A stretch of DNA of 64,000 nt from Marsupella aquatica (lineage: Eukaryota > Plantae > Marchantiophyta). Below are positions 18,711 through 46,320 of this stretch, piece by piece. The stretch is taken from contig OZ316891.1 in NCBI GenBank assembly GCA_973895155.1, positions 21,628,513-21,692,512 of the forward strand, given 5' to 3'. Below the pieces are notes generated by a model that was not told where the DNA came from, did no database searches, and was given only the letters and a program-made list of their open reading frames with translations. The position numbers and the translations under genes are program-made. Positions within the stretch are counted from its first letter, which is position 1; every line of letters starts with the position of its first letter.

Positions 18711-20722
18711 CTAGAGATGCAGGGAGGTGTCGAGGAGGTCCTGCTGTCTCAAGTAGTTGTCATTGGAGCATTCTCTACCGCTGTTGTTGTACCATTTCAC
18801 ATCTGACTGCTTAGAACGGCACGTTGGAGATGATTCAAATGACAAATCGATCTCCCATGATCCATCTGCGGAGTAGTTTTCTGCATTTGGTGGGACAACT
18901 GGCGTGTTCAAGCTCAAACTTTTTCCCCATGCCCCCTGCTGCTTCGACTTGGGCGAAGAAAACTTAGCTGCGAGGTTGAAAGGGAACCTGGCCACGACCT
19001 GCTGAATGGAAGACGCCAATTTGGTCTCTACCCCCACATTGTGCATCTCAGCTGCAGCAGCAGCCTTTTTCGCCTTCAGAATTTCCATTCGCTCGGCTGC
19101 CAGCAGCATTTCCAAGGAGACTTCTTCAGTAGTCGTGCTTCCAGATCCAGCTGCGAGAAGCGTTTCCAGAGAAACTTCAGTATTCGTCGTCCTGCTTCCA
19201 GACGCAGCTGCGCTTCCCATAGCTGCTGGTCTATCTCTGAGACTCATATTCTTGAATGCAGTCAATGTGCTGTGTGGCGGCCGGCCCACGGTTGGCGGCT
19301 GTAGCATATAATGGAGCAAGGCGTTAGCCGCTTCATCACCTTGAGGTGACATGCTTTCAGAAACGTCCGGGCTTTCACGAGCAGACCAGCTGGACTCGGA
19401 TTGCGAGCGCAGTGGACTCATATAAGGTCCCGTCAACTCGGACTGTGAGTGCAGTGGACTCCTATAAGTCCCCATCGACTCCTGAGAGTTTAATGGACTC
19501 CTGTGGATCCCCACCGCATCCTGTGAACTCAACAAGTCTTCCCCAGACATTCCGGAATTGGCTGTCTTCAACCGACAAGAGTTCGACATCATCTCTTGCT
19601 GTAACGCAAGCAGTGCTGCCGTTCCTTCGTCAAAATAGTATGACTCTTCAAATCCCACGCGCGGGCTGGATGGAGTGGACGAAGCTGGAGTGTTATGAGC
19701 GGAGGAGTGTCCACTGCGGAAGTTATGGTTGGGGTAAACTTGAATTTGTTGACCCTGGATGGATTCCCTGTACTTCTTCAATTGAGCGAACTTGTTCTGA
19801 AGGAGAACGATGGTTGAAGCCTCGGCGGGTCGGTCCTCGACCCGGGCGAATGTCTGATTGCTGGATAACGGCGACGACCTCATACACGGCTTCCGCACTG
19901 TGTTGTGATCCTCTTGCTGCTGCTGTTGCTCACTTCTACAGTGATGTATGTCTTTCAGCTTCTCCAGCACTTCCGCAAACTTCTTTTGATCCACTCCTGC
20001 CAATTCCGCGCATTTCAGTTGTTGCAACGTTAGATAGCGGTCTACGTCTGATATAGCTGTCTACGTCTGATATAGCTCAAGCCTTCTTCCAAAACTACCG
20101 TTCTAAGTTCATTAAATTCAGTCTAAGCTGTCATTTGCCTTTCAGATTACTAGAGCAGGCCATTTGATCAATCCTAGAACCAGCACGCAAGAATGCTAAA
20201 AGGCAACTGGTGGAAAAGACTTACGACTCTTAATTGGCATTAAATGATACTAACTTTCAGCATTTAAAAAGAGTTCACGAAAAATTACACATCGTGTATA
20301 CTTTGAATGGTTAACAGGATAAATGCATTAAAGCGGATGTGACCACCGAACTTACGAGTTGCCTTCATCAGTAGGAGCTGGGCCTGCAGTGTTTCCATGT
20401 GGTGACTGCGATGCACCGGCTTAGCGCATTTGATACCATTGAACGACTGACTCCGAGCGACACTCGGTTTCTGGATTCTGCCGTTGATCAAGGATTGGCT
20501 TCGAACATAAGATGACCGCCTCCCTGGACTGCCATTGAACGCCAACGGAGTGGTTGGACTGGCGGTGGGACTGCAATCTTCAAATTCTCCAGATGTGTCC
20601 TGATCCACGCCTGCTACATTCACAATTAGGCGAGCAGAGTCAAGAAATCACCTTTAGAAAATCTCATACGCTCGCTAATACTTACTAGGCGAGGTCCACG
20701 ACGCTATGGACACGCACGGCAT
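18711..20722 (-). CDS. 3-exon gene (20722-20686, 20610-20356, 19996-18711), ~525 aa, Ser/Gln-rich protein of unknown family with a C-terminal EAR-like motif
   Basis: Both introns are GT-AG with gtaagt donors and ctaa branch-like sites; phases join (37+255+1286 = 1578 nt) into one ORF MPCVSIASWTSPSVDQ...MKATRVDQKK...QQDLLDTSLHL*. Confidence 0.8.
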
Positions 20723-24528: not shown

Positions 24529-24656
24529 CATATGAACTTGTGAATAGTAGAAAGTTTGTTTTTAGTCTCTACTTCTATTTATGTTCAAAGACCATATGAA
24601 CGTGTGAATAGTAGAAAGTTTGTTTTTAGTCTCTACTTCTATTTATGTTCAAAGAC
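24529..24656. repeat. 63-bp tandem duplication
   Basis: catatgaac.tgtgaatagtagaaag...gttcaaagac twice. Confidence 0.9.
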
Positions 24657-27600
24657 AGGGCACTTATACCACCACTATTAATCAATAAATCAAACTCTGT
24701 GTTGGGAGGAGCAAGCGAGGTACCAAAACAGGAGCCTTTTCCTTGCCAAAAACAAAACCTGCCCGTACATAGCAATATGTGCAGTTCACTGGGAGCTGTT
24801 TTTACGATGCATGAGTATTCTGTTGATCTTCTGAATCCCCTGTTTTTGGCCAGAATTGGTCGGGGGCCTTTATTTTTAGACGATATAGTAACTCAATGAT
24901 TATGAAGCGACATCTACTGTAAGTGAAGTATATGTTGAGAGCAAATCTTAATTCACATGGTTTTCTACTACGTGCGAAATTCATATTTTGTCCTTTCTTC
25001 TTACGTGGATTATTTTTAATTAAGGATTTCCGTTCTAAAATTATATCTTATAAATCTTCTGATTTCTTCATTATGTTCCTAATGATGTCCTTTGTTACCA
25101 ATTTCTTTTTTGCCCACCCTTCACCGCTATTAGTCTTATACTCCATTCAAGTGTTACACATCACTAAAATTAGTCAGTATAATTTGAGTGACCAAGTCCT
25201 TTGTGACAAGAATATTTGTTTTGTAGTTGTGTATCTTTCCTACCATGATTAGTAACTACTGTGTGGTTTTATTCTCATTTTCCTGAAAGCCAGAAACAGT
25301 CCCATGCAAAATTGATGAGCTATTCACCCAAGGATAAGGGAATTTTGGTTTTGCAAACTGGTTTGGTCGGTCATTGCAAAGTTCTATTGGATTCTTAATA
25401 AAGATACACGTTCTGAATTTGACTTTTTAGTATTGAATATGTGGTTTCATAGGCCCAACTTGCATGTTCCCAGCCCTTCACAATGCAGTTGCCCCAAATG
25501 TCTCCCAGGCATGCAAGCATATCACTGAACCAGATGTATCCAGTTGAACATCCTGATGTACCAAGCCTGACGGCACCATCCATGCATTTTTTAAGGCAAG
25601 GTCTAGGAAGCTTTTTCCCAAAGGTACTAAGAGTGCAAATTAAGGGCCGCATGCTTGAATGAGGGGTCTCACATGCGAGTTGGCCCTAAAAGTTAAACAA
25701 CCTGGCCACCATAAATAATAGTGAGAAACATAGTGAATACATTGTTCTTGATTGCATATGTAAAACAATATTAGCCAATCGCTATATAACAGGCAGGTAC
25801 ATACTAGTATCACTCCAAAATTAACCTCTGAAAGATTAGGCTGTATCCTGGAATGTCAAAATTGCATAGAGTCACCCAAATAGCATTAGTAAGACTAAGG
25901 GTTGTCTTGCATGTGCACACTAGAAGAAACCGGCCCATTTTGAGACCTGAAGATGTGTGACTTGGCCAAGACCTTCATGAAATAGCGACTCCAAGGTTGT
26001 TGGTGTCATGTTAGTCACACCTTCTTGACTGAGTTTTGGTGAAGTTTTGCCAAGTCATGTTTACAACTTTTAGGTAAGTTGCAACTATAACTTAGTTAAG
26101 GCAATTAGGGTGAAGTTATACAAGTGACTCTACATTAGAGTACAACTTATGAGACCACTACATTTGAACCCTTAAACCTTAAAGTATGGGATCCGCGACC
26201 ATATACATATGATTTTGGATACACCATATGTCATTCCACATCAATTTAATAATAGTTTAGTCATACCATTCTAAACCATAATTACTCCTGACCCCATTTA
26301 GACACAATGAAGCCTCAGCCCCGTTCAAACCGAGAGCAGGCCGGCTTTGTCAAACCTTACTATTAACCTAACTTAATGCTTTTTGTAGTCAATCTCTAAT
26401 TTTCTCCATCTTTACCACTTGTCCTACCCTCTATACCAGCCATAGAACATTGGATGTCCAACTACTATATTTTTGCATGCTATATATATATATGCATATG
26501 AAGAAGGCTTGATCTTAGATAGCATTAGTTTTCTTTTAGGCTCATCATTTGTGCTCTTAATTAATGAACATGCAACAAGGCTATTGTAAGGTTAATCCTA
26601 GCCCTGTCCGTTCATTTAATCTTTGCTCATATTGTGTTGTGTCAAATTTGCTTTAGGGTTTACAGCTCATGTCAACGCAAAGTGGTCGAGTGTCACTGGG
26701 TTCAGTTCTCTCACTAAGTGTTAAGGTATGCATTGTGCGTTGCCTTTGGATACGAGTTTAGGGTGCGCGGGTTTTTCAACAGGAAACACACCAGCAGAGT
26801 GCAAATGGGAGTTGAAGGTGCGCGGGAACTCGGAGGTTTTTGTCAAGGAAAAACTTGGATGTCCATTGTGCTTACCAACAACCATCGTTTAGGGCGAGGA
26901 GCTTTACGGACTTCACTCCCGCTTGTCGTGCTTGAGTGTACATCTGCTCTCTATACTTTTGGGAGCTTTGGACTAGAGCAGATGATCGGAAGCCTCGGAC
27001 GAGAGACACAGACTCCAATATCCAGCTCGTAGATCAATCCGTGATTGATTTTGTCAGGTGTGCGACCTTCAAGCTCTTCTCCATTGTGCGCTTCCAGTTG
27101 AATGCTGCAAGGTCTGAATACTATCGGGAGCTTGCATTTGGGCCAAGGTTTAGGTATTTTGTCATTGGAGGACTGAGCTGTGGGTTTAGGCCGACTTACT
27201 ATGAGCTTATGTTGTTGCAACTGTGACCAATAACTGAGGAGCTGCGACCAGGAGCTTATTTTGTTGCAGCACTGCCGTGGACAAGGGGTTGTGGAGGATC
27301 GGGGAGCTGCGACGTAGAACTGAGGAGCTGCGAAAAAGTGGGGAGTGATCTTGAAGGCCAACTATCTAGCGTGAGGTGGATCATAGTGGTTGCAATAGCG
27401 ATCGGGCCCTTTTTTGCATTGGCATTGCCAGTAAGACAATCTGTGGATGCGCGAAAGAGTCGCAAGGAGTTGTTCTTGTGGGCAGAGATTGGAGTTCACA
27501 TTTGGTAAGTCCACCTCAATAATGACATACATTGTAGGTGGAGGCAATGTTATGGCCTCTTGTTGTCTTTAAACTCATTCTCCACTCACAAGAGAATGAG

Positions 27601-29037
27601 GATTGATTGTGTCCTGAGAAGCTTAACAATTTATGTTGTTGACATCGTCCACATTGAGTGACAGTGAGCTCAAGTCAGTGAGTGACCGATCGAAGGGGAC
27701 ATTTGTGCTCTTCATTACATGCTCGGGCAAGAGTGATTGATGTACTAATCGCAAGCGCTCCCAGGTATCCATTTGTCGTTAAGACTTGAAGCTTCACCGG
27801 GAGCTGCGACCGTCAGTGGGGAGGAGTTGGAGGTTGTGTTGCGCTCGTACACAACCTCCAAGGTACAAGGCAGGAGTTGTGCAATTTAAGGTGAGAGTCA
27901 GTAGCTTTTGGGATTCACCATCTTTCATCGTTGTCATTGCTGCTCTCGTCTATCGCTACGGCCGATTGCTGCTCTGCGTTTTTGCCATGGGTTGCCAGTC
28001 TGCCAGATGTTGAGTGAGACAGAGGCTACAACCTGGGTGCGCGGAGGTCCTCACTAATCCCATGGTTTACAGTTTGCAAAATGTGACAGCCCCAGTGCAT
28101 AGTGAGGTATAGGGTGTGTGAGGTATAGGGTGTTCTTACTCGTGCTACAGTCGCTTTGACTTGCTGAGTTCCAGCAAATTGAGTTTTAGGTGCGGTCAAT
28201 GAGAGTTGAGCTGTTTGAGCTGCGGTCACTGAGAGTTTAGAGTTTGAGCTGCGGTCACTGAATGCTGGCATTGAGGTGCACGCCCTTCACATTGATCAGT
28301 GAAGGCTACGGCCGGGGTGATTATGACAGTGATTCCAATGCAAACCGTCCAGGTAAGATTTATGTGACATTGTGTACAATGAAAGTGGCCCTGCTTATTG
28401 ACTGCTTAATGTTTGTGTTGCAACTGGCAGCAGATGCATGGAGTGCAGCGAAGGGAGGCGCTATTCATGTGAGCTGACAGGGGAGCTGGACTTGTGAGCC
28501 GTGGTTGCAGCTACGTCTTGGAGCTACGACCTATGAGTTGCGGCTAGAGCTACGACTTGACCTGAAGGTGACGCATGAAGAGTAATTTTGCAATCCATGA
28601 ATGTTTGTACTCAATGTTATAGATGCATAGGGTGGGTGTTGCATTTTGTTACTATAAAATGTCCGTGATGTCGTGAGATGTTCTGTTCCTTGGATTGAGA
28701 CAATTCTTAGATCTCTACATCAGCGATTATTATATGTCATGTCTCACCTCAGATCATGAACGTGATTGGTTGGAGACTATATTAATTGGGGAGGAGCTCC
28801 AATCCGTTGTCATTGCTTCTCAGTGGAGTGTTGTTTTAGTAAGCTACAGGGGGCAACAGAGCGCAAGTTGCTGTTTGCAAGTTCACGCCTGCTACCTGCT
28901 ACCTACGACTTCCGCCTGAAAGGTATGACATTCACATATGCGCATTTCTGGTCTCCAGTTGATCAATGTACTTATTCCCGCTGCCTTGAAATGGACCTCA
29001 AATTTCCATGCTCCAATACGCTACTGTGATCGAAGCC

Positions 29038-29175
29038 TATCACGATGCAAAAATAGAGGAGAGGCAGAATCAGAGCCCGGACACCAACGTGTACAGATAT
29101 CACGAAGCTAAAATAGAGGAGAGGAAGAATCAGTGCTCGGCTCGGACACCAAAGTGTACAGACATCATGAAGCTA
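29038..29175. repeat. ~60-bp tandem repeat (~2.3 copies) in the CACTA leader
   Basis: tatcacga.gc.aaaatagaggagagg.agaatcag...cggacaccaa.gtgtacaga repeated. Confidence 0.85.
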
Positions 29176-31101
29176 ACTACAAGCTAGCAGATAGGTCAAA
29201 TGCTCCCAAATCGAGTCAGAGGAAAGTTACTAAGACTACCTTCACAACTCTCAAGTCTGGAAAGTAAAAATCAGCCTGAGACACGTAGCAAGAACTGTTG
29301 TCTGCTAGGAACTGTTGTCTGCTTTCTTGGGGATCGTCATGTGTATGTAATTGCATACACATTCTACCTGAGGGGAGTATGACTGTACACCTTAGGTAGA
29401 ACCAAGTACTATCTATCGCATGATATAATTCCTCTACAATTTTGTATTAATGTTGCCTAAGTGCTTTGTTGTATTGTTTTGGTTGTAATGACGTCACTTG
29501 CATTTCATAGTCAGTCTTAGTTGGTTGGCTTGGTACTCATTTGCTTTTCACTCCCTCTGGCTAGTGAATTTGTCTATTGTTGCTGAGTTTTTTGCGTAAG
29601 AACTACATGTTCTTCACTTTCTTGATCGTACTCTCTCCCCTATGGAAGACTATTGGCTTGGGCTGCCAGCCTTCTCTCTGTTTCAATTTGTTGTCCCTAT
29701 GGTCAAACACTACTTGGTTAGTGGTTTTGCTCTATTTTTGTCTGTTTTGCCTTCAAGTAGGACATGGATGAATTGAGCTTGGAGGCAACAAAATGGCAAG
29801 GAATCTGAATGGTTCCAGAAGTATGTGTGCTGCATTTTGATCTGGAGAACCAATTGTAGAGTTGACTCTTTTTGAATGTTGTAGTCTATTTTGCCTTGAA
29901 CTGGGCCATGGATGAATTGAGCTTGGAGGCAGTTTTTTTCATTCCCATCTTCCTGAAGCCTTATCTGCTTTCTGCCACCCCCTTGTGGTGGGGACTTTTC
30001 TTGAAAGATCCTTATTGTGAACAGAGTTTGTACTTTGATTATGAAGTTTGACTGAGTTTCTGTTTACTGAAAGAATGTGACTGTGTAAGAGTTCCGTTTG
30101 GCAGTGGATTGGTTGAAGCACTTCCTGCTAGTGTGTTGTCCACAGCTCTTCAACCAGCTTTTGTATTCCTTGTCTTTCACCACTTACGGTGACATCAATT
30201 CAGCTAAGACCATAGAAGGTTCCAAGGCATCTAACTTGTAAAATCGCATTCTGTTACATCAAGGACTAAGGTGTTGGGTGCCAAAGGAGACAGCACAGCA
30301 AACATGCTGAAAAGACTTCAGGACTGGGTTCAACAAGGTAGTGAAGGTGCTTAGAGCCATAGTAAGTATGCATTCTGTATCCTTTCTCTGTTGATGTGAG
30401 CTTGTGCATAGTAGGAGTTGTAGTTGGCAAGAGTTCCATAAGGCCAAATATGAATAGTTCCAGAAGTATGTGTATGAACCAAGTGTAGAGTTGACTCTTT
30501 CTAAATATTGTAGTCTCTTTTGCCTTCAACTGGGCCATCGAGTACTGCTAGTGTATTCACCCCAATGAGCAATGCTTCTCCATTCAATCAGGTGAACGTA
30601 CAGTTTGGTAGGGCCAATGCCATGTGATCATGTACTTGCTCTATAAAATTCTGAAGATATAAGCATTTTCTGTTAGACCAGGCAACTTGGGAGTTGCTAA
30701 GTGTCACCTGCATCTGAGGGGCTACACCGGGGGCATCAGTGGAGGTTCACTTGCACAACACGACAGCCAGTGAATTTTCTCTCTGCTGCAACCTGCAAGG
30801 TGAGACTTTTGGTCCTTCTGGATGAAAAAACAGGATTTTAATATGATTGATATACATGTCCGTCGAGAACATGGGTTTATCACCAAGCTCTTTGTCTTAG
30901 GAAACTCATAAACTCAGAATCAAATATGTACTATGCACGTTTCATGCTATGTGTATACTATGACCTGTAGTTGGAACCAAGACAGTGAGTGGGAACTGAT
31001 TAGTTTAGGTTGGTTGTTGTTGGCGAGGCAAGTCGACCTCCTGCTCGCCTTGCTCATCAAAGGACGTGAATAGAGGACGTCACAACAAAAGCAACACTTA
31101 A

Positions 31102-31551
31102 ATGGTGAGGACCCGCAACGCTGAACATGTGCGGCTTGCACGCAAGGCAGAGATGTTGCGCCTTGAGTATGTCAGACTTGGGATCCTTCCAGCCCAGTCT
31201 GCATGGTACTTTGAGTACCCTGTTGTTTCCAGGAACAACTACAGCCGGCCTCTACCTGCTTCAGTACCCTTCCCGACATCCTTGGTATTTGTGTCTCTTG
31301 TACATGACCCGCCACAAATTAGGTGCCAAGGGTGTGTGCACAGTTGCCAATATGACTGTCCTGCCTGTAGGGCTTCTGGCCCAGAATTGGATGACCGTTC
31401 TCTTGGATGCCGATTTTTGCACAGAGCACAATGTATCATCTGGAACCACTCGCCATCCTGCAGTGTGCCTGGTGATGTCACTTGTCCTGCCCTCCCAGAC
31501 CCCACCACTGGTGGATTTGGTGTCTACACATGTTTGGATCACATGCTCTAG
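31102..31551 (+). CDS. CACTA cargo ORF 1: 149-aa Cys/His-rich, putative zinc-binding protein of unknown family
   Basis: ATG start MVRTRN; CxxC-x3-C-x3-CxxC...C...H...C pattern; upstream intron-like segment (donor 30799, acceptor ~30970); co-oriented with the other element genes. Confidence 0.5.
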   Translation: MVRTRNAEHVRLARKAEMLRLEYVRLGILPAQSAWYFEYPVVSRNNYSRPLPASVPFPTSLVFVSLVHDPPQIRCQGCVHSCQYDCPACRASGPELDDRSLGCRFLHRAQCIIWNHSPSCSVPGDVTCPALPDPTTGGFGVYTCLDHML

Positions 31552-32165
31552 AGGACCACTTGTCACACCACATGCATAGACCAGATACCATTGACCTATA
31601 GCTTAACACTCTGCCTTCAACACAGAGGATATTTACTTAAAATTTTGATGTATGAGCAATTTTGGGTCCAGGGTTTAGGGTCAACAGTACATAACTTATC
31701 CTAGTATGCCTGCACTAAGCAAAATATCCTAATTTAAGAGGCTAGCAAACTCGCTTAAAAGTCTCTATTGAAAGACTACTTTAATATTGCTTTAACCTGG
31801 TGAACATTGCAACGTTGAATGAATTAATGGGCCATGTGATAATATGCAAAATGTGATTTATGCCTCACTTATTTGTCTCAGCCACTATCATAACCTATTT
31901 AGGATGTATAAATTTCAACCCTTATGACACTGCTTCATACCAATCCTCTTCAAAGAATGCCTGTTTTACATGTCACGACTATTGTATGTGATTCAAATGC
32001 ATGAAATGTTGTTGCAGATCTCCTTTGGTGAATCATAGCCACAATTAAAATTGAGGTGTTGGTGGAGAAATTGTATTAGGGGATCAGTTTTGTGTGTGGG
32101 CTCAACATACCCAAAGTATGTGTGCTCTGCATCCTTGTGTGGCCATTCCAATTCATTGCAGTAGC

Positions 32166-32309
32166 AAATGCCTTTGTACCTTAAATGCTAAATATATTTT
32201 ACTTTCTGTGCAGTCTGCTAAATTGTAGAGTCTATCTAAATGCCTTTGTACCTTAAATGCTAAATATATTTTACTTTCTGTGCAGTCTGCTAAATTGTAG
32301 AGTCTATCT
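32166..32309. repeat. Perfect 72-bp tandem duplication just upstream of the PHD ORF acceptor
   Basis: aaatgcctttgtacc...gagtctatct twice. Confidence 0.95.
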
Positions 32310-32320
32310 CATGCGCAGGC

Positions 32321-33001
32321 ATGGCACGGCCTAAAATTCAAGCCAAAAAGCGTGTGACAGAGGTGAGAAACACAGGTGTACTTGGGGCAGATGCTACTAA
32401 CTTCTCTGCAAGTCAAATTTTCCAAAAGGCAGCTCATTGTTGTGCCATTTGTGACGATGGTGGGGGCCTGGTCATTTGTGAGGGCCCTTGCATGAGGCAT
32501 TTCCACCTCAACCCGGAGTCTGACCTTGCTGCAGAAAACAACTGTCCAGGGGTGGGCCTCCCGTCAACACACCAGGGAGACTGGATGTGCACTGATTGTT
32601 TGGAGAAGCAGGCTAAGTGTGCACAGTGTGGGAAGTTGGGGTCCTATGAGGGCTCTGTTGATGCTGCAGCAAATGTTAGAAAATGTCCAGACCGTTTTTG
32701 TGTGAGATTTTTCTGTTTTGAGTGTTTGCCTGCTCATGCCACAGCTTGCCCACTTCATAGGTGCAAGGCATGTGGTGAGCATGATGATGACTACTGGACT
32801 GACATAGTCCACTGTGCTAGGTGTCCCACTATGTGGCACTATCATTGCCTGAAAGATCATCAAGCAGAGGGTTATGCTTGTGACAGAGAAATCTATGATC
32901 ACTCTGCACATGGTGTTGATTGATGGATATTTTATTGTCATCGCCATGCCATTGATCCTACCTCGCGCACTCCTATGAGAGATCACATATCTTGGCTGTG
33001 A
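32321..33001 (+). pseudogene. CACTA cargo ORF 2: EDM2/NSD-type PHD-finger cluster (~226 codons) with one in-frame TGA at 32921
   Basis: CAICDDGGGLVICEGPCMRHFH...CTDC...CAQCGKLGS...CPLHRCKAC...CARCPTMWHYHCL; reading through the stop gives WIFYCHRHAIDPTSRTPMRDHI, matching EDM2 'LIYCxxHEIDxxLxTPxRDHV' (recalled, not aligned). Confidence 0.85.
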
Positions 33002-33593
33002 AGCTGAACATTGTACATGCACAGTGCACCTGATGTGGATGTACTATTTTTTGAGATTGCAGAGATTCCAATTTTGAAAAGGAGTTGGGTAGGCGAGTTT
33101 ATATAGGCAGCACTTATCTTGTGCTCTGGCGTCAGTGGCTGGGTACATGCCTATACAAACTTATCCTTACAAGCCTTCTTGGAAGTATTTAGGCTGAGTG
33201 GTCATTTTCATAAACACTTTCATCAGACTGCTAAATTAAAACAGGACTTCTAAGTTGTAAGCATATAAATTATCAGGCATGCAATTAATCAAATTGCCCT
33301 ATAAGTTTGTCATTGAATGTATCCTCCTTTACAACAAAATATGTATGTGCCATGACCAGTTGGTTGCACTTCATTTCACCACGGATATGGATTTTGTAGT
33401 ATATATTCAAACAATGTCCTGCATCCGTGCAGGTGCCTAGTACGTATTGTTCACATATCCCTTGTACCTATCAAAATCGGACCTGAGTACCAGTGGGCCA
33501 GATCAACTCAAAAAGCAGGAATTTTGTTGTCCTTATATTGTCAGGTGAACCCATTCTTCCAAAATTCACTGTCATCACGTAGGGTGTGTGTAC

Positions 33594-34463
33594 ATGGAGC
33601 CTGGGAAACGTAGAAAGTGTGACCACCCAGCAGTGTTTACAGGGGTCAGAGCGATTTTGGTCCATGGCCAGCATGGGTTGACCAAAGTGCATTGGCCAAC
33701 TGTACAGAAACGATTCTCTGAGCTCCATGGCACTGTAGTTCAGGACATCACTCCAGAGACTACACATGTTGTTGCAGGGACATGGCTATCAGTGATAAAG
33801 AAGTGGTCATGGTACATGAATTCTGCAATTACTAAGCAAGGCCTAAAAGTAGTTGAGGCCTCTTGGATCACAGATTCCATAGCACATAAGATTGTACAGG
33901 ATACTGAGCAATATGAGTTGTGGGAGGATGAAGAAGCTACTGCATCAGCTTGGGCTGAACAAGAAGTCTGGGAAGCAAAGGCACGGCTTGCTGATCTCCA
34001 ATATGGACCTGTACTCAACAAAGGACAGAGCTCTACAAGGCTGAAGAGTATGTTGGCTGAGGAGACGAAGCAACCAACCCCCATTCTGAAAGGGCTGAGC
34101 ATGGTATTTGTGGAGGCGGGAATTGGAGAGGTTAAGTGCAAAGTGTACAAGTCCACAGTGCTTGACCTAGGTGGGACAGTGGAGGAGAATATAACAGAGG
34201 ACACCACTCATGTCATTACTAAGTCATATCCCAAAGCCTGCCGCAAGTTTGGGAAGGGAGACATTCGCTTTTATGTCATGTCCCATAATGTGTTTGTGGT
34301 TTCATATGCTTGGCTTGTGGAATCAGTAGCAGCTGGGAAGCGTCAAAACCCAATGGACTATGATCTTTTTGACGCCTGGCCACGGAAGGGTCAGGATCCT
34401 TACAGAGAGGACTATGAGACAACAAGTGAGGAATGGGTCATTAGCGATTCTGAATCAGAGTGA
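33594..34463 (+). CDS. CACTA cargo ORF 3: intact 289-aa tandem-BRCT protein, BRCTs resembling that of plant DNA polymerase lambda
   Basis: Two units VF/LxG...GGTV/HGTV...TTHVV/I...SWITDS/AWLVES...YEL/YDL; basic NLS-like KRRK after the ATG at 33594; acidic C-terminal tail. Confidence 0.85.
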   Translation: MEPGKRRKCDHPAVFTGVRAILVHGQHGLTKVHWPTVQKRFSELHGTVVQDITPETTHVVAGTWLSVIKKWSWYMNSAITKQGLKVVEASWITDSIAHKIVQDTEQYELWEDEEATASAWAEQEVWEAKARLADLQYGPVLNKGQSSTRLKSMLAEETKQPTPILKGLSMVFVEAGIGEVKCKVYKSTVLDLGGTVEENITEDTTHVITKSYPKACRKFGKGDIRFYVMSHNVFVVSYAWLVESVAAGKRQNPMDYDLFDAWPRKGQDPYREDYETTSEEWVISDSESE

Positions 34464-34896
34464 GGAGTAGTAGCATCAGTTTGGACACAAGTTTTTTTGT
34501 ATAAATCAGATCATTGAAATAAATGTGATCTTTGAACTAATGTACCTTGTTATGGTTGGTGGCAGTTGGGCTTATTTTACTGTTGGCGGATTGTTGTTTC
34601 CTACTGCCTGGGGGTGTCACTGTAAACGTACATGCAGAGGCGGTACATTTGAGGACAGCGGAGGAGGTGGTGACACCCTCCAACATTTAGGAATTTTGTG
34701 TCATTCACTTGACAATAGGTACACTACTTGCGAACCTGTTTTTTTCTTTTGGGGTGGTTTAGGGTTTGTGAGAATTTAGTACACGTTATGTTAACTCTTT
34801 TGACAGATACAGTCAGGGATATATGGAACACAAATACCACCATTAGGCATCCTTGTTCACTGCTGTCCATGACTGCAGAGCTCCCAGCCTGTTACA

Positions 34897-37464
34897 ATGC
34901 ACCCTGGTCACCACCCTCCCCAGACCCAGCCCAGGGCACAGGCACTGCCTTTGCATCATCCCACAAGGATATCACGCCATGATAATAAGCTTTGGCAGCG
35001 TGAAAGGTTACGAACCAGACTTTCAGGAGCCAGTAGGATGAGATGGCCTTGTGCAATCTGCCAAGGATCCCGTACCAGGGGTCTGAATGAGGTTTGGCGG
35101 CATATCGCGGTTCATGGAAGAGATCCACGACATCGAGTTTGGAATGATCCTGCAGAGGAAGATTCTTCCAATGCTCAGGCAGCACCACGTGACGAAGGAA
35201 TTCATGTAGAAGAGATGGTGAGAGACATCTTCCAAGACTTGGATGCATTTCATGATGGGCTAGACAACGAAGAGGATACGGCTGTAGATGCAAGTGTGCC
35301 CCCTGTCGAAGAGCCTCTTGATGAGTTTGAGATAGGGCAGGAAACCCCTGGGCATGATGGGATGTTTGGCTCTCCCGTGCAAATACAGGAAGGTAGGAAG
35401 TCTTTGTACCCCGGTAGCAAATGTTCTAAACTGGGATTTGTCATCATGTTCCTGAACATTTGCGGCAACCACAATGTCCCCAACGTTTTGGTTTCTGAGT
35501 TGTTGGCATTCTTGCGAACAACTGTGCTACCAGATGGTAATATTTTGCCCAAGAACATGTACGAGGCAAAATGATGCATATCTAATCTTGGATTGAACTA
35601 TGATTCGATCCATGCCTGTCCTGATGGGCATGTTCTTTTCAGAAAGGAGTATAAAGAATCGTTGACATGCCCTAAGTGTGGGAAGCACAGGTATCGGAAC
35701 TCAGGAAAGTCTATGGTTCCCGCCAAGGTACTTCGTCATTTTCCACTCATTCCCAGACTTCAGCGGATGTTCAGAAGCCGTGCGACTTGGGCAACTGACA
35801 AGAAAAGTGATGATGGGCTACAACGACATGCTGCAGATTCAAGGCAATGGAAACTCATAGATGAGATGTATCCCGAATTTGCTGCTGAGCCGAGGAATGT
35901 CAGACTTGGGCTGTCATTGGATGGGGTAAACCCATTTGGAGACAAGAACAACAAATTTTCGTGCTGGCCTGTAACTATTTTGAATTATAACCTTCCTCCT
36001 TGGATGACTACAAAGCGATTTTTTGTTCTGATGGTCCTATTGATACCAGGGCCAGACAGTGCTGTATCTGCCAACATAGATGTGTTTCTGGCTCCCCTAG
36101 TGGAGGAATTGAGAAAGCTTTGGGAGGAAGGAGTTCTCACATATGATGTCCTACAGAGGCTTGGGAGGTTAAACCCATTCATCCTTAGAGCCATTGTCAT
36201 TCTGACTATAGCTGACTACCCAGCCCATGGGATGATATCAGGCCAAACAACAAAAGGATATTGTGCTTGTACTATCTGTGGGCGCAATGTCACCAGTGAG
36301 TACTCCAGAGCCCTGCAGAAAGTGATATACATGGGCCATCGTCATTTTCTGAAGGCAAATCACCCTTACAGAGAAAGACAGGCACTGATTGCACACTTTG
36401 GCAATGAGATTGAGCAACGTGGACCCCCGGCACGAGTGACCAAAGAGGAGATCAGGCAGTGGGGAGCATTGAGGGATGACTATATCAAACGAGGGGGCAG
36501 GGAAGATGGAGTGAGTGATCCAATAAAGCGATATGGTGTAAAAAGACTGAGCATATTGGACTTGGAGCTCAAGTACTGGAGGGTAAGCCTCTTGGAGTTG
36601 ATGCTAATTGGGATACATGTTTTGGTTCAGAGCATGTGCATTCATTTCGAAGAGAGAGACTAAACTTGAGGCATTTCCTGACGCTTTTGCATTGCAACGA
36701 TGCAGGAGTTTGAGCCAAGCAAACATAACATTGATGTTATGCACATTGAAAAGAATATTTGTGAGAGTCTACTCAGATTCTTGTGTGGAGAGAAAGACAC
36801 TGGTTCAGTGAGATTGGATCTTGAACAGAGGGGAATGAAACCCCATCTTTGGTTGAGGCCACATGCCCACAGAGCTGATGTGCTCTTGAAGTACCAAGCG
36901 CCCTATGTTCTGACAGACACAGAGTGGGAACTATTTGTGCAGAGGTTGAGTTCTTTGAAGGTTCCTTCAAACTATGGCAGTGCTTTCAAGAAGCATATCA
37001 TGACTAGAAAGCTTGGTAGTATGAAAAGCCATGACTACCATATGTTGATGCAACAGGTGTTGCCTTTATGCCTGAGGGGCCTATTGCAGAAGCCTGTTCG
37101 TACTGTGATCATGCGACTCAGTGATGTGTTTCGTCGTATTTGTGTGAAGGTTTGGGATGAAACACACTTCCCACAACTGACAGAAGATGTCGCTCAGGTG
37201 CTGTGTGACCTGGAGATTTATTTTCCTCCCGCATTTTTTGATGTCATGACCCACCTACTTGTCCATGTTGTGGAAGAGCTACACCAATTTGGGCCTGTGA
37301 GTGCTCGTTGGTTGTACCCTTTGGAACGGTACATGAAGCTACTCAAAGGTCACATGAGAACATATTACAAACCTGAAGCAAGCATGGCTAAAGGTTACAT
37401 CAAGGATGAGACTCTGGGATTTCTGACCGAATACATAGCACAATATGAGCATGTGAAGACCAGG
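34897..37464 (+). pseudogene. TnpD: TnpD/Tnp2-type CACTA transposase: exons ~34897-36582 and 36706-~37464, premature stop at 35572, C-terminus deleted
   Basis: Transposase-associated motif WPCAIC...VWRHIAVHG; YEAK*CISNLGLNYDSIHACPDG; RNVRLGLSLDGVNPF, YNLPPW, ADYPA; intron 36583-36705; HNIDVMHIEKN, KSHDYH, FPPAFFDVMTHLLVH, RWLYPLERYM; homology ends abruptly after QYEHVKTR. Confidence 0.95.
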
Positions 37465-38153
37465 GCGTCCTGCCAGTTCTGTTTTGCCTTCAAAGCCTGT
37501 GCATGCACCATACCAGCAGGGGGGGCTGACCTCTGATCAAGGTTGGCGAGGTGGTAGTAGTGGTAGATCCCAGGCTGGTGCCCAATACTATGGCAGGGGG
37601 CAAGCTCTAGGTTATGCCCGTGGTAGAGGCAGAGCAGGTCCAAACCCACAATCTCGTGGGTATGGACGTCCACCTCAACCATGGGGATGTGAGTATATAT
37701 CTATATGCCAGTTCTTTGTGAAGGCATGGCACTCCTGAATTTCAGACTGCATATCAATTTTTGACATTGTTTGGGATGTATTGGATTCAGACAACATGAA
37801 ATTCTGTCCACCTGCCATTGCATGCAGATTCTGCCCAACCTGATTGGGCAAATGCTAGTAATGATCAGTTCCAATGTCCACAAGGACAGACATGGGTTGA
37901 ACCAGGTTGGGAGGATGGTGGTGGGTCGTGGAATGAACAAGGTTGGGAAGGTGGTGAAGGTAATTGGCAGGGATATCAAAATTCAGTACCTACAAACGCT
38001 GGAAGAGGGGCAGGTAATGTCTGATCTTGTCAGCAATGGAAGAACTCATTATATGTGGAGTCCATTCACGTGGGGGGGACTCTGCACATGTATAATGATA
38101 GAAAATGTATGTGTGCAGGTTGGACAGTTGAACCATCGACTCAAGTATTCACT

Positions 38154-39388
38154 CACTAGAAGAATCCGAGGTGAACTGAGACCGCAATATATGACTCATT
38201 TTGGCTCATGTGACTTCATTGTGACTCAACGTGACTTGACCCACGCTGTGACCCTTGGAGTTGCAAAAGTTGAGACCAAAAAATGGAAGTCACTATTGAT
38301 ACTGGGCTTTGCAACTTGCTTGATACCCATTTGTGACTGATCTGTGACTTTATTGTGGAGTCTAGCCTTGTTTCGACGTGACTGCAATATGACTTCAGCG
38401 AGTCACATCGTAAGTCACATACATGACTTACCCGCATTCAACAACGACTAGCGTGTGACTATTTAGTGTCACAGTACATAGTGTAGCATAAATTACATAG
38501 CTAGGCCATTCATTCTTACCAAACGTTTAGCTGTCAGTGCAGTGCCGGTCCTTCCTGTCAGATTAGGGTTCTGAACACTCAACCTGGCCTCGGTCATCTG
38601 TGAACTCTTCTTTTTTGAAGCATCTGTTACAAAATAAGCTACTAACCTTGCCCACACTTTATCATCACAACTGGCTGGTGGAGGCATATCTGGCTTCTCC
38701 CCACCTTCCTTCCAAGCCTTATGCATTCTCCACCTCTCTTGCTTGATGATTTTACCTGCTGTACTCTCTAGGCAACCTATGTCCACGCCATCATCACTGC
38801 CCACATAATTCCATTTGGCAGCAACATTTTCACATACAGTCTTCCAATCTTTTGGATGCTGTTTTTTAAAATTAATAACACTCACATCTAACCAACGCAA
38901 TACTTCAGCTTTCAAATCAGCATGCCATCGGTTCTTGCAAGGACACTCAGCATCCACCCATTGTCTCTCATTCAACTTTACGTTCCCTTTCTTTGTCACC
39001 TCCCCTCGTGCACTGCTCTCGGTAGTATTGGGCGTTGTATTGGCCACCCCTTCATTCACCCTACCTGGGGTTCTGAAGCCACCTGGGAAAATACAATGCC
39101 ATTCATGCTTGAGAACTACATATAGCAGAATGGATGACGGCAACATTCAATGCTTCACTTCAAGAAAAATTCTTCAAACATACATACCTGTAGCTCTGCC
39201 TGTAGATGCCTGTGCAGGGACTGCACTCTGAAATTGTTGCGACCCTGGACCACCTGTCTAGCCTAGTACAGGGGCCGGATGATGTCACTTTCTAGGTATG
39301 TGTGTGCAAACATATGTACTGAAAACTAAGTACAAACTGTAGGAAAACAACTGAACATTCACCGACATACCTGTCCCCCTTCCGTGCT
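38154..39388 (-). mobile_element. Inverted copy of the CACTA right end (44457-44777) fused to a copy of 41522-42437, lacking the ~2.0 kb between them
   Basis: Begins CACTAGAAGAAT preceded by ACT; near-identical reverse complement of the two segments; junction at 38473-38474 with 2-bp CT microhomology; contains the duplicate 217-aa ORF 38493-39146. Confidence 0.95.
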
Positions 39389-39410
39389 GCATCTGCATAG
39401 GGGCATTAGT

Positions 39411-41521
39411 CACTAGAAGAAACCCACCCTTTCTGAGACCACAAAGAATGTGACTTGTCCGAGACCTTCATGAAACAGCGACTCCAAGGTTATTGGTGTC
39501 ATGTTAGTCACACCTTCTTGACTGAGTTTTGGTGAAGTTTTGAGGAGTCATGTTTACAACTTTTAGGGAAGTTGTAACTATAACTCAGTTAAGGCAATTA
39601 GGTTGAAGTCATACAAGCGACTCTACATTAGAGTACAACTTATGAGAGCACAACATTTGAGCCCTTCAACCTTAAAGTATGAGATCTAACCCAATACATA
39701 TGATTTTGGATACACCATATGTCATTCCACATAGATTTAATTCTAGTTTGGTCATACCATTTTAAACCATGCCATTACTGAGTATTCCATCATTATTCCT
39801 ACCCCCATCTAGACACCATGAAGCGCGCCCCAGCCCCATTCAACTGCAAAAAGGATTTGTCAAAGCTTGCTAACCTAACTTAATGCTTTTTGTAGTCAAT
39901 CTCTAATTTTTCTATCGACGTCTTCTGGTCGTGCCAAAGGCGTGCTTAATTATCACCCAATTTCAGCCTCACATATGTAGGTTGGGTTTACTTATTGCCA
40001 TGCCCCAGAAACCACCATGTTTCCCCGGCCCCCTTCATATATGACAACCAATGCATGCTTCATGTTCAATATAAGTCCAACTTAAATGTCCAACTTAAAT
40101 ATATATGATCAGCTCTTCACTACCCCAACCCTAAAAAAGTGTTCTTCATAATGGTAATGTGGGGTCATACCTGAATATTTGGCCACATTTTCACCAAAGG
40201 GGGTGGTTCAAAGTTGTGACTAACCACTCACCCCACATATAACTAAATTGCGTAAGTCCTTTGGTTTCAAAGGAAAAAACAAATTAGGCAAATCATAGAC
40301 TTTTGTGTCTCTTTTGTGAACTAATGTCTCCACTTCAATGGGAAGACAAGTGAGTGGTCTTCACGTTCGGCATTTCTCTCCCGCACAGGGTTTTGGGAAG
40401 GGTCTCCAAGGGAGTTGGTTTGCCTCAAGGGTTTGCAAGCCAAACGGAAGCTTTGCGTGCCATCGTCATTGAGCTGGTGGGAGGTCATCGAGGTCTTTGG
40501 AAGAGAGAGGTCGAATGCCTAGCGCTACCGGGTGAGGAAGTAGAGTATGGCAATGCTGCAACTTTAGGGATTTTATGACATCCTACTAACGACTGTTATT
40601 GGACCCGGCTTCCAGTTTTGGCGTTGCACTTTTTGAAGTTGAGGTTGGACCTTATTGCGGCCCGATGTGTATACACTCCTAGCCTTGCCGTCCTGAGCTG
40701 CGAAAGGGTTCTCGATTCTGTCCTTCTGCTTTCGTTGATCGTTGGGCAATGTGAGTAGTAGGAGGCGAGAAGAGCGAGTGTGTGTTGCATTGAGAAAAGG
40801 GAATGTGAGTAGTAGGCATCAAGAGTGATTGTGTGTTGCATCGACAATAGGCACTACGGGAAGCACTGTGAAGAGTTTGCGAGAATTTAATTCAACATTC
40901 AATAGACACTCATTCCTTGAAGCTAGGAGAGTGAATTCGATATTCAGTTGCAACTTGGGATCGAGAACCAGGAGCTTGTCACTTGGCTTGCATTTGGACT
41001 ATTCTTGCTGCGGATTGCTACGCAGCACGGCTTGGTGCTGCATCGCCCCAGGTAAAGCTGCAATCCCTATCTTTGCGGTCCTACGTCGCTGCAAGTTTAG
41101 TTGTCTCCCCACGGTCTTCTGAGCTTGGTGTCCATAGCTTACGGTGAGCATTGGAAGATCAACCTAGCGAGCATTGGAAGAGCGTTCGATCAAGTGTGGG
41201 TACAACATGCTGATACCTTTGAGCTGGGAGAGCTCAGAGAGTTGAGCTGCAAAGCTTGTAGTTGCGGACTCTATTTCAGTTTAGGCGAAAATGTTTTTGG
41301 TCTTTAGAGCTCATTGTAATGCAGATAAAAACTTTCAGTGTTTTTGGAGGTAAGTGAGTCTATAGAGGCGCTCAACAAACGCAAGGACCTGTTCTTGGGA
41401 GCAGAGAGCTGCAATACTGATCAACTGAAATTGGATGAGAGTGAGTCCAGGCCCTGCGGAGCTGAACTTAGCTGAATGACAAAGATTGAGCGTGCGCGGC
41501 TGAACTGAAGTGTGGCTCAAT
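39411..41521 (+). mobile_element. Second, diverged CACTA left end with its own non-coding leader
   Basis: CACTAGAAGAAA preceded by AGT (reverse complement of ACT); 39411-~39910 aligns by eye with 25918-~26405 with many substitutions, then diverges. Confidence 0.9.
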
Positions 41522-44419
41522 AGCACGGAAGGGGGACAGGTATGTCGGTGAATGTTCAGTTGTTTTCCTACAGTTTGTACTTAGTTTTCAGTACATATGT
41601 TTGCACACACATACCTAGAAAGTGACATCATCCGGCCCCTGTACTAGGCTGGACAGGTGGTCCAGGGTCGCAACAATTTCAGAGTGCAGTCCCTGCACAG
41701 GCATCTACAGGCAAAGCTACAGGTATGTATGTTTGAAGAATTTTTCTTGAAGTGAAGCATTGAATGTTGCCGTCATCCATTCTGCTATATGTAGTTCTCA
41801 AGCATGAATGGCATTGTATTTTCCCAGGTGGCTTCAGAACCCCAGGTAGGGTGAATGAAGGGGTGGCCAATACAACGCCCAATACTACCGAGAGCAGTGC
41901 ACGAGGGGAGGTGACAAAGAAAGGGAACGTAAAGTTGAATGAGAGACAATGGGTGGATGCTGAGTGTCCTTGCAAGAACCGATGGCATGCTGATTTGAAA
42001 GCTAAAGTATTGCGTTGGTTAGATGTGAGTGTTATTAATTTTAAAAAACAGCATCCAAAAGATTGGAAGACTGTATGTGAAAATGTTGCTGCCAAATGGA
42101 ATTATGTGGGCAGTGATGATGGCGTGGACATAGGTTGCCTAGAGAGTACAGCAGGTAAAATCATCAAGCAAGAGAGGTGGAGAATGCATAAGGCTTGGAA
42201 GGAAGGTGGGGAGAAGCCAGATATGCCTCCACCAGCCAGTTGTGATGATAAAGTGTGGGCAAGGTTAGTAGCTTATTTTGTAACAGATGCTTCAAAAAAG
42301 AAGAGTTCACAGATGACCGAGGCCAGGTTGAGTGTTCAGAATCCTAATCTGACAGGAAGGACCGGCACTGCACCGACAGCTAAACGTTTGGTAAGAATGA
42401 ATGGCCTAGCTATGTAATTTATGCTACACTATGTACTATTTTTTAGTGTAAACCCATACATGTAAACTTTGTTTTTTAGTGTACGTTCCCTGAATATTGA
42501 TCGATAACTTGTGTTTGCCATGCATGTGCAGAAAGCCCAATTGGGGCAAAGCCCTTCAAAAGAAGAGTTGAGGGCTGAAATTGTGAACACCCGGGCTCAA
42601 GAGGGTGCATCTGAATCCTCCAAGCATGTAAGTTATATGAGTTCTGATTGGTAATTGAATGACCTGCGTTGAATTTCAGGTGTACACTGTATATAACATT
42701 GATTGTGCATATATTGCCCAACATTTCATATGGAGTGATTGAACCTATACCCCTGTGTCATGTAGGGAGGTGGATCTTCACTTACAGAGATAAGTGGTCG
42801 TTTGAAGGCTATCGAAACATGTCTTCCAGAGATCAATGAACGTTTGAATTCATTGACTGACTTGTTCCATGTGAACTTCAAGACATTAATGGAAGCTTTT
42901 GTGTCGGTGAGAGATAAAATTGATTCCAATTCTGCAGGAGTTCCACCATCACCACTTGAGGTGGCAAAGTCGATGCACTCTTCTGGCATGCCAACGACAT
43001 GTAGGCTTGAAGGTAAGGCCTTTACAACTGTGTGGGATATGATTATTAAATGTATAGTTTGAATTGACATTGTTTGTTGAATGTGTTATTTTCAGTAACA
43101 TATATTGTGGTTGTTGTGTCCATAGAGAATAAGGCAGGTGCTACAGAGAAGAAGTATGAGAACCTGGCAAATACTCGCTGTAATTTAGAGGCAACAAAGT
43201 TGCAGTCTGTACAAGCAACTTGTTTGACAGAGGGCAGTCAACCATGTTTGGATGAGGATGACATTGGCAAGGGAGTGGATGATATCAATGTTGGGGCAAA
43301 TGAGGATATCAGCAAGCATGACAATGATACCATTGAGCCAGATTCATGCTATGTAGATCTTGACTCCATTGCAGAGATAAATGATTTGCAGAATGTATCA
43401 TTCTCAATGACAGGTGTGCCTCTTGTTGAGATAAATCCAACCAAAGAGTTAGTTGGTATGACACTCCCAGGTGATGAACCTGCTACTGTGACAGTCCTAA
43501 CAGAGGAACCTACTGAGCCTAGCTTCACTACTGTGAAGAGAGGAAGCATGCGCACACGAAGCAAGTCTGCTGGTGGGAGCAGAGCCACGTCAAAGGTTTC
43601 ATACAAACCTCCAAGAACAGTGCTGGTAGAAAGATCTAAGGTGGAAGTGGGGAAAGCACCTAATGCTGAGGGACAAAGTGGCTTGTTAGCTGTTGATGAG
43701 AGTGGAACACGAGTAGGATTTGCCAGAGTGCAGGTTGGTTCCACAACGTTCCATGGCAAGAGGATTCCCCCAGGTTATTCAGTAGTGTTAGTCACATTAC
43801 TAGTGAAACCTAAAGCTGTCCTTCCCATTTCAAACACAAATGATGATCCTCCTCAAAAGACACTTGGAGATGCTGCAGGTTCTTTGGTATTATGGCCAAG
43901 CAAGTTCATAGAGGATCCATAACAATGTCATGCCATTATTTGTTTGTAGTGTGAGTCATGTTATGTAGATTTTAGATGTCAAGAAGCAGTACAAGAATCA
44001 TGTCCTCTTGGAGATTCATAGTATCATGCATGTGCTTTCAGTTATCTCATCCTACAGTCATCAATTATGAGTTCCTGTTTTGTCTGAATTACATTGATCA
44101 CATTGTAAACTATTCCATTGGAATTCAAATGATCTTCATTTTTTAGCAAGATTGTGATTGTGTTTAATTCTTATGAATGTTTTATGTAGGATCTGCTTAT
44201 ATGATGCTTTGTTTCATGTGGATGTCATTCATGCTATGTTCATTTCTTGTATTCAATGTGTTATATTTCTAAAGTTAGAACATCAGGTTTCTATGTATTG
44301 TAATGTCAAGTGCTCTCTCTCCTTATGAACTGTCCCTCTGTGTTCATTAGTCATGGTTATAACTTGCATGTGAACCTTATTAGTTATAAACATGATTATA
44401 TAGAGTCCCAAATGGTTCT

Positions 44420-44777
44420 GTTGTGTGACGCGAGCCAGGGTCTCCATTGGTCTCTCCTGTGACACTAAATAGTCACACGCTAGTCATTGTTGAATGCGGG
44501 TAAGTCATGTATGTGACTTACGATGTGACTCGCTGAAGTTATATTGCAGTCACGTCGAAACAAGGCTAGACTCCACAATAAAGTCACAGATCAGTCACAA
44601 ATGGGTATCAAGCAAGTTGCAAAGCCCAGTATCAATAGTGACTTCCATTTTTTGGTCTCAACTTTTGCAACTCCAAGGGTCACAGCGTGGGTCAAGTCAC
44701 GTTGAGTCACAATGAAGTCACATGAGCCAAAATGAGTCACATATTGCGGTCTCAGTTCACCTCGAATTCTTCTAGTG
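44420..44777. repeat. CACTA right subterminal array of GTGACT/AGTCAC motifs (putative TnpA binding sites)
   Basis: >15 gtgac/gtcac motifs in both orientations next to the TIR. Confidence 0.8.
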
Positions 44778-46320
44778 GCAAGAGTCCTGAAAAGTGTGAC
44801 CCTTAGCAGCCCATAGATGTAGGGGAAAAGTGTGGGACCCAGGAACTAAACACAATCAAAAACAGCTTACGTGTAGGTGAAGTGCTTATTCAGTCGGATC
44901 TACTGCCATTTTTTGTATTCAAAGCTTTAAGTTTGGGACCTCAAGGGCCGGCCCTTGCCCTTGCATATCCTCCAAAGACGCAATCAGGACTGCCGGCTTG
45001 TCGCTTTGTTTGGGATGCCATGGGTTCATTTGAGGGCCGAAAATCAAAGGACTTTGCACATGCAAGACGGCCCTAATAGTGGTGGACATTGCAGGCTGGA
45101 CTGTAGGAAACCCCCGAGGAAACCTAGACTCCCTCTTTTGTGCTTTTGTGTAGGTCTTTGAAGCTCACTTAGCAACAGTGACACCTTGAAGCTGATATCA
45201 ATGTCAGTGTGCATTTACACCGTTTAATCGTAGTGCTTAGGTTTCAACTGTGCTTAGTTCTCTCAAGTCATGGAGCACACCTAGCCTGTTGTGTCAATCC
45301 ATAATTTGCACAATTAAGTACAGAACTAAGGTTACCCATGTTTAGTTACCATTTTCTAGAGGTCCGTGCTATTTCCATAATCTACTGCCCCAAAAGTCAT
45401 GATTGTTATCTTTATTCTGCACTAAATTATGTACTATACTGACGGTCTAAGCTTGGGTCCCAGAATGCTCAGGAAAACTTTTTGCTATAGCTGGTCAGTT
45501 TTTCTTTGTTCAATCCACTCATGTTCTCACAACCATTTCTCCCCCATCAGGCCCGAGCTCCTTCTGTGTGGGGGGGGGGAGGTCACTTCCATGGAAGTGG
45601 CATATCATGTGTGATGAAGGATAGGGCCATTTAAATGGATTTTGCGGAAAATATATTAAGTCTTCAAAGGAAATATAGGTCGGGTTCTTTAATAATTGCA
45701 ATAATTATGCATAGTTACATGTCATCAAATGAGTGGTGTTGTACAACTTTATATGAAGTGACTCAGGGGGTCATAAATGACCCTTGAAACCTTTGCATGT
45801 GATATAGGTACTCCATATAGTGAACCCCTGAGCTGCCGAGCAACCTTCCGCCCCTGGATATGATTGATATACCATATTGTATGTTTTACAGCCTCTTTCA
45901 ATGCCTACAGTAGAACTTACATTCTTTTTGGCAAGAGCAAAGAGTGCAGTACTTTGACACTTGAAGCGATTCTATTAGGATGTCTCAAAACCTGGCCATA
46001 CCAGGACAATGTCTTGGATCCCATGCATAAAATTAAGTTGTGGGAGCCAAACTTAATTTGGCTCCTGCGAGGAAAGCTTGTGGGTCCAACATTTAAGCAA
46101 TGACCTTAATAACTTTCCAATAACTTGACTAACAAATTCAGAAATCCAAAGATCTGGAAAATCTGTGATCAAAGGCACATGGGCTTGGGGCCTAATGGGG
46201 TAATGCTTGCTGCATTTGGGGGGCTGGTAATTCCAAGAATGAAAAAAAGTGGATATAGAGGCTATATGAGAGTGAGGTGAGGCTTTCACCCCGCCTTACC
46301 TGGCGGGTCAATGTTGCCTC

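Follow-up and report, generated by a model that had tools for sequence, protein, structure and literature searches.

A stand-alone two-BRCT cargo gene in a CACTA transposon family of the liverwort Marsupella aquatica and its plausible role in DNA repair

Introduction

For cut-and-paste elements, copy number rises chiefly if the break left at the donor site is repaired from a template, not by end-joining. To our knowledge, the ways in which elements might bias this choice of repair are little understood.

A survey of 962 proteins of CACTA (En/Spm) elements reports "various accessory proteins" (10.64898/2026.08.24.746577), and the terms 'brct' and 'phd' have 0 occurrences in the main text of that preprint, as distinct from its supplements. 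Our literature search, in sources other than Repbase and most subscription journals, found no report of BRCT cargo in CACTA elements or of transposon-encoded BRCTs. A transposon-encoded accessory that acts on host machinery for its element is found in published accounts of VANDAL elements, namely the anti-silencing factor VANC. Its domain and superfamily are unrelated to those described here, and the parallel is one of analogy only.

Several BRCT proteins of the host offer closer comparisons. Human DNA polymerase lambda (Pol lambda) is described as docking on Ku via R57 and L60 in helix 1 of its BRCT domain, and catalytically dead Pol lambda as hampering gap filling in an R57-dependent manner (PMC12056208). 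In the account given in PMC4444747, the BRCT of Arabidopsis Pol lambda is N-terminal and a Ser/Pro-rich stretch comes after it; work cited there reports that this BRCT binds Lig4/XRCC4 and that Pol lambda acts at transposable element (TE) excision sites. Tandem BRCTs that read phosphopeptides are known from BRCA1, MDC1 and plant BCP3/4, of which BCP4 is presented as a gamma-H2A.X-type reader (PMC11014961).

Here, we analyze a window of 64,000 nucleotides of Marsupella aquatica (assembly GCA_973895155.1, contig OZ316891.1, positions 21,628,513 to 21,692,512, forward strand), in which an ORF for two BRCT units lies inside a CACTA element. It is a real cargo gene, apparently without earlier description, in an element class that is itself known, and a repair-related role is plausible for it.

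Results

A BRCT gene within a complete CACTA element

The BRCT ORF sits between a PHD-cluster ORF and the TnpD transposase in element A, a complete element at positions 25918-44777 of the window. By the definition of CACTA/En-Spm elements in the methods of the Spm preprint (10.64898/2026.08.24.746577), element A belongs to this class, with CACTA at both termini, a 3-bp target duplication (GCA on both sides) and TnpD. The left terminal inverted repeat (TIR) and its GCA occupy 25915..25928 (+), and the right TIR, an 11-bp perfect match to the left one, lies with its GCA at 44767..44780 (+). Counting the 7-mer TGTGACT over both terminal stretches of ~380 nt gave 10 occurrences, as a raw count with no shuffle control.

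On the + strand, a Cys-rich ORF of 149 aa (31102..31551) is followed by the PHD-cluster ORF (32321..33001), the BRCT ORF (33594..34463), TnpD (34897..37470, 3' limit approximate) and TnpA-like exons (41764..43922). The Cys-rich ORF, whose best Pfam match falls short of significance (E 0.097), is possible further cargo; other copies of the element are 2 nt shorter at 31100, near this ORF. NSD-type Pfam matches below the cut-off were obtained for the PHD-cluster ORF, which carries a premature stop at 32921-3. TnpD matches Transposase_21 (PF02992, 237.5 bits) and DUF4218 (PF13960, 96.2 bits), contains a stop at 35572-4 and lacks 15 nt at 35783. DUF4216, looked for after DUF4218, had no match in 37400-38150, where a Gly/Arg-rich stretch is found; a truncation of TnpD, or another splicing pattern, may account for this. 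The TnpA-like exons match Ptta (PF03004) with 22 bits, below the cut-off of 28.7. Element A resembles described CACTA elements in its ends, its 3-bp duplication, its Transposase_21 and DUF4218 domains and its putative Ptta-like gene, but differs from them in carrying a BRCT-only accessory gene.

Nested at 38154..41521 (no strand assigned) is a non-autonomous derivative of the same CACTA family, which has CACTA ends of its own and is flanked by an ACT/AGT duplication. It holds 916-nt inverted TnpA copies, 99% identical to each other, and the segment between them appears to have been flipped, either by recombination in vivo or in the assembly.

The window contains further features. Near-exact single tandem duplications of 72 nt (32166-32309), 64 nt (24529-24656) and 68 nt (6691-6826) are slippage or assembly artefacts. 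Inverted arrays of 18-19-nt subrepeats at 3910-4354 and 8215-8604, ~4 kb apart, may mark the termini of a further TIR or foldback element. On the minus strand, a 449-codon low-complexity frame with no Pfam family at E < 0.1 (18711-20060) is probably a host gene exon, and a short translated stretch at ~58900-59000 presumably resembles an exon for tRNA isopentenyltransferase.

The BRCT ORF itself runs from an ATG at 33594 to a TGA at 34463 (+) and encodes a protein of 289 aa (P0001), with a basic KRRK patch at the N terminus, an acidic C-terminal tail and no stop within its 289 codons. Pfam BRCT (PF00533) matches it in two stretches (48.3 bits, cut-off 21.3, E 1.2e-12). Unit 1 (33627..33929, +; aa 12-112) carries the tryptophans W64 and W73, invariant in the family described below, and does not retain the Ku-contact positions. 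A linker of 49 aa (33930..34076, +) begins with a predicted helix (113-137) and continues as a low-confidence stretch. Unit 2 (34077..34376, +; aa 162-261) has K, V and Y at the positions assigned to R57, L60 and F61 of Pol lambda.

An AlphaFold2 model from a 26-row alignment showed two confident BRCT-type domains (pLDDT 73.6) in an arrangement of low confidence (pTM 0.44); an earlier fold with 3 sequences had given a pLDDT of 30.6. Unit 2 superposed on solved BRCTs with a best Z of 15.8 (rmsd 1.4, 93 residues aligned). The model's Foldseek and VIA matches were generic BRCTs (Rad4, BRCA1, Lig4, PARP4 and XRCC1), with no Pol lambda among the 50 rows listed in the fold search, and a search of the ESM Atlas returned generic BRCT clusters only. 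Two BRCT units and a linker in an uninterrupted frame had been proposed in a sequence-only reading of this DNA; Pfam, AlphaFold2 and the open frame confirm them, with the linker now measured, and every peptide quoted in that reading occurs in the translation.

A strong splice-acceptor-like site by our home-made score (33521..33544, +) lies 50 nt 5' of the BRCT ATG, and a second, weaker candidate lies at 33582. A stop codon in frame between the strong acceptor and the ATG argues for a separate gene without fusion to the PHD ORF, and suggests that the BRCT gene has an intron in its 5'-UTR. An AATAAA lies at 34518, 3' of the BRCT stop. The ORF would probably be expressed as its own spliced mRNA. 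Strong sites by the same score precede the PHD, BRCT and TnpD ORFs (3 of the 5 ORFs tested); ~5% of random 160-nt windows contain one.

Copies of the element and relatives of the protein

Parts of the stretch are contained in 9 of the 11 listed sequencing runs (7 studies). When depth was compared over 30 bins in 8 runs, all bins were present in 7 of them and 11/30 in run X8. In X7 and X8 (labels D and E), the BRCT ORF was covered only by short or low-depth pieces, which were not counted as evidence of absence. One contig of run X6 (record 19; 1,381 nt, ~95% identity) spans the BRCT ORF and the 5' region of TnpD, and a contig of run X1 (record 2) connects the stretch 3' of the PHD ORF with the BRCT start. 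Single X1 contigs have depths of 1,641-1,800, although the whole run comprises 743 million letters. Such depth is beyond that of a single-copy eukaryotic locus unless the library was enriched, which argues for many copies. The BRCT ORF thus appears to be a regular part of a multicopy CACTA family, the depth step assuming a non-enriched library.

The sequence-only reading had also drawn on the contrast between an intact BRCT ORF and its broken neighbors. The breaks are present in the window copy, but the inference does not hold. In X1, X2 and X6, every contig compared has a sense codon at the position of the PHD stop; at that of the TnpD stop, every contig compared from these three runs and from X8 has one. 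Both stops are therefore private to the window copy. This copy diverges by 0.63% over 1,904 nt from six X1 pieces, and at ~0.6-0.7% divergence the chance that the 867-nt BRCT ORF stays open is ~0.76. We therefore rejected intactness as a signal of selection: the contrast is the chance decay of one copy. Compared with other copies, the window BRCT ORF is one codon short, at 33812.

A word-index search with P0001 returned 2 full-length relatives, 59% and 54% identical, and homologs at 54-60% identity retain the start, the length and both units. Using phmmer against 1.84 billion representatives, we obtained 27 matches at E<=0.001, which were classified by eye and with Pfam. BRCT-only family members account for 17 of them, including the 14 best; the others are a 143-aa Riccia protein, five sequences resembling the N terminus of Pol lambda and four other BRCT proteins. 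Only one of the five was verified, by way of the cluster member P0039, which has Pol X domains and a Pol lambda annotation. No close host gene for P0001 was found among the 1.84 billion representatives.

There are 11 distinct two-unit proteins, 264-321 aa long. Ten of them, compared pairwise, are 17-60% identical (17-36% for most pairs), and M1, F15, G46, W64, W73 and W240 are invariant in the 11-row alignment. Neither Pol X catalytic nor 8-kDa domains were detected in the ORF, the scanned regions of the element or the family proteins. Searches for longer, fused relatives yielded none at E<=1 in 7,993 candidates and none in 176, which is weak evidence. The single-unit relatives P0019 and P0027 retain the full R-x-x-(L/I)-(Y/F) motif of helix 1 and are possibly nearer to the state before duplication.

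Locus scans with the family alignment gave no match in metagenomes or viral contigs, and a scan with P0036 gave one 1.4-kb locus. Broken and whole versions of family members coexist, as transposon copies behave: P0013/P0035 and P0017/P0037/P0036 share clusters, and the linker of the distant homolog L001 is interrupted by an in-frame stop (389-391). The 460 nt 3' of L001, the only distant locus examined, had no match to a transposase or TnpD, and the region 937-1404 of this locus is a possible further ORF without Pfam match. Transposon context is therefore seen for the CACTA family of the window only. As the BRCT ORF belongs to the regular make-up of a multicopy family and has ten other stand-alone two-BRCT proteins as relatives, it is, by these comparisons, old cargo and not a fresh host fragment. 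The contigs of other copies, the homologs and the phmmer search all bear out the earlier view that it is transposon cargo kept in its family, with no recent origin from a host tandem-BRCT gene.

Descent and surfaces of the two units

The units were first likened to the Pol lambda BRCT by eye, with a call for profile searches and trees against other BRCTs. Profiles lend this likeness modest support. With the family profile, the best single-stretch score in the PDB among the alignments listed was that of the human Pol lambda BRCT 2jw5 (34.6 bits), with REV1 at 30.5; by whole-chain score, however, BRCA1 (up to 34.3) was on a par with 2jw5 (34.9) and Rtt107 (40.4, several stretches summed) ranked above it. 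Using hhalign, the nearest outsiders were P0022 of Mesotaenium (89) and P0026 of the liverwort Riccia (83). The transposase families by themselves point to a plant host, and a non-seed plant is likely given that a liverwort and an alga supply the sole named close matches. BRCA1-, TopBP1- and multi-BRCT rows scored <=61, and animal or fungal Pol lambda-like rows, at 51-63, were inseparable from these generic BRCTs. In P0022, as in the published description of Arabidopsis Pol lambda, the BRCT is N-terminal and precedes a Ser/Pro-rich stretch. P0022 aligns with P0039 at E 2e-11 and has 2jw5 as its sole PDB match (E 0.2); it is a probable algal Pol lambda N terminus. The best PDB match of P0026 is TopBP1. 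A Pol X domain is absent from both gene models.

Trees did not single out Pol lambda. The first was built from 50 rows after removal of 3 overlapping duplicates; the second, also used for AU tests, had 30 rows after removal of long-branch rows, fragments and near-duplicates. All outgroups came from the search with P0001, which biases the sample towards look-alikes. In the 30-row tree, eight unit-1s form a starred clade (97/90), arguing that the duplication is old. P0022 and P0026 adjoin this clade with weak support and the unit-2s have no firm placement; the 50-row tree gives a similar picture. With these outgroups, AU tests of five groupings rejected none, the family placed with Pol lambda-like sequences lying at 1.6 log units (p 0.42) and with BRCA1-like sequences at 11.6 (p 0.20). 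Thus, the likeness to Pol lambda stands in the profiles, whereas the grouping does not follow from the trees. On balance, the units probably descend from a Pol lambda BRCT, the ancestry that the profiles favor.

Among the alignments listed, the Pol lambda N-terminal BRCT is by profile the most similar single BRCT class, and in its conserved Gly and helix 1 it shows the spacing found in P0001. Unlike Pol lambda, P0001 is doubled and has no polymerase or lyase domain, and the Ku-contact Arg is not conserved across the two-BRCT family. DNA ligase IV likewise has two BRCTs and a long, partly helical linker, and gives weak sequence matches. However, these are limited to the BRCT cores, leaving out the ligase linker that binds XRCC4, and rank below Pol lambda in the PDB profile search. 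Moreover, units 1 and 2 of P0001 resemble each other (24% identity over 91 aa), as an internal duplication predicts.

Phospho-reading pairs such as those of BRCA1, MDC1 and plant BCP3/4 also have two BRCTs per chain. P0001 differs from them in its 49-aa linker, and it shows no confident head-to-tail packing; superposing both domains on such pairs or on TopBP1 gave an rmsd of ~10-14 A. Their phosphopeptide pocket, scored as S/T-G after strand 1 plus a Lys in helix 2, a definition in agreement with the published plant BRCT description, occurs in 0/26 family units and is present in P0021 and P0024, the BRCA1-like control rows. This makes a reader of the gamma-H2A.X type, such as BCP4, unlikely, and we rejected this candidate.

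The Ku-contact positions were placed from the R-x-x-L-F spacing in P0039 and the 2jw5 alignment. K, V and Y are conservative replacements there in unit 2 of the window protein. In the ten two-unit proteins compared, a basic residue stands at the R57 position in 4/10 unit-2s and 2/10 unit-1s, and 5/6 Pol lambda-like outsiders have Arg there. A basic plus aliphatic contact pair is found in 2/10 unit-2s and 0/10 unit-1s, which weakens the case that Ku binding would be a family-wide role. The invariant residues fall outside these positions, and conservation centers on W64/S72/W73.

Discussion

We propose that the CACTA-borne two-BRCT protein, likely an old duplication of a Pol lambda-type BRCT, acts as a non-catalytic decoy or adaptor on host end-joining at transposase breaks, and we give this reading a probability of roughly 0.35. 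As P0001 has no catalytic domain, any repair role would be exerted by binding. Unit 2 would occupy the docking site of Pol lambda, either the Ku bridge or XRCC4-Lig4, at the donor break without filling the gap. Donor-site repair would then be tilted from end-joining to copying off the sister chromatid, which would restore the element and raise its copy number, and unit 1 would bind a second partner via its conserved Trp-rich surface. In a more far-reaching version, which we regard as doubtful, a plant CACTA lineage would have recruited the Ku-docking domain of Pol lambda as a twin-BRCT decoy, blocking end-joining at excision sites or redirecting it. Together with a PHD chromatin reader, this decoy would form a host-manipulation cassette aiding high copy number. 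If true, this would be a transposon-encoded DNA repair inhibitor derived from the host's own repair protein.

The main rival places the protein at chromatin. The BRCT pair would be a scaffold with the PHD-cluster protein, and with TnpA, that keeps the element expressed or steers its insertion, any repair role being lost. The PHD-cluster ORF may resemble plant EDM2. In PMC7529245, EDM2 is described as binding H3K9me2 and as suppressing proximal polyadenylation at TEs. Such a partnership is in line with the position of the multi-PHD ORF directly 5' of the BRCT ORF, with the sense codon at its stop site in other copies, with the acceptor-like sites before the PHD, BRCT and TnpD ORFs and with family conservation at W64/S72/W73 and not in the Ku helix. 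However, adjacency is by itself no proof of partnership, the missing phosphopeptide pocket speaks against a gamma-H2A.X-type reader in this setting too, and unit 2 of the window retains a Pol lambda-like helix 1. We therefore see an anti-silencing or chromatin function as possible, if rather improbable.

Two further readings concern where the gene comes from. The two-BRCT proteins might be unannotated genes of non-seed plants, one of which was picked up by this CACTA family, so that the function would be the host's. The annotation of Riccia P0026 as a gene would fit, as would the restriction of transposon context to the family of the window and the lack of a transposase match in the short flank of L001. 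The high divergence between members is at odds with this reading, as are the broken and whole versions found side by side, and the text on 21 Arabidopsis BRCT proteins in PMC11014961 describes no such stand-alone pair; we hold it unlikely. Far less probable still is a neutral Pack-CACTA capture, in which the ORF would be a piece recently taken from a tandem-BRCT gene of the host such as BRCA1/BARD1 (with its PHD), BCP, TopBP1/MEI1 or LIG4. Plant BRCA1 and BARD1 are described as carrying PHD fingers before their BRCTs (PMC11014961), the AU test leaves a BRCA1-like origin unrejected, and the intactness of the window copy is uninformative on this point. Yet a recent capture is hard to reconcile with the lack of a close host gene among the representatives searched and with homologs at 54-60% identity that share the start, the length and both units, and the BRCA1-type pocket is absent from the family units. 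A captured BRCA1/BARD1 PHD-BRCT fragment in particular was rejected: the PHD ORF has only NSD-type or plain PHD matches in Pfam and none to the extended-PHD family, and the two ORFs are separate, with an in-frame stop after the strong acceptor (use of the weaker one at 33582 being conceivable).

The decoy or adaptor reading thus remains the one that we prefer. Under it, this BRCT gene, which stands alone and is conserved in a multicopy CACTA family, would be a small candidate for a factor by which an element biases the choice of repair. Whether the repair idea is right or wrong, this work brings to light an apparently new family of two-BRCT proteins, as well as a CACTA subfamily whose cargo includes PHD and BRCT genes.
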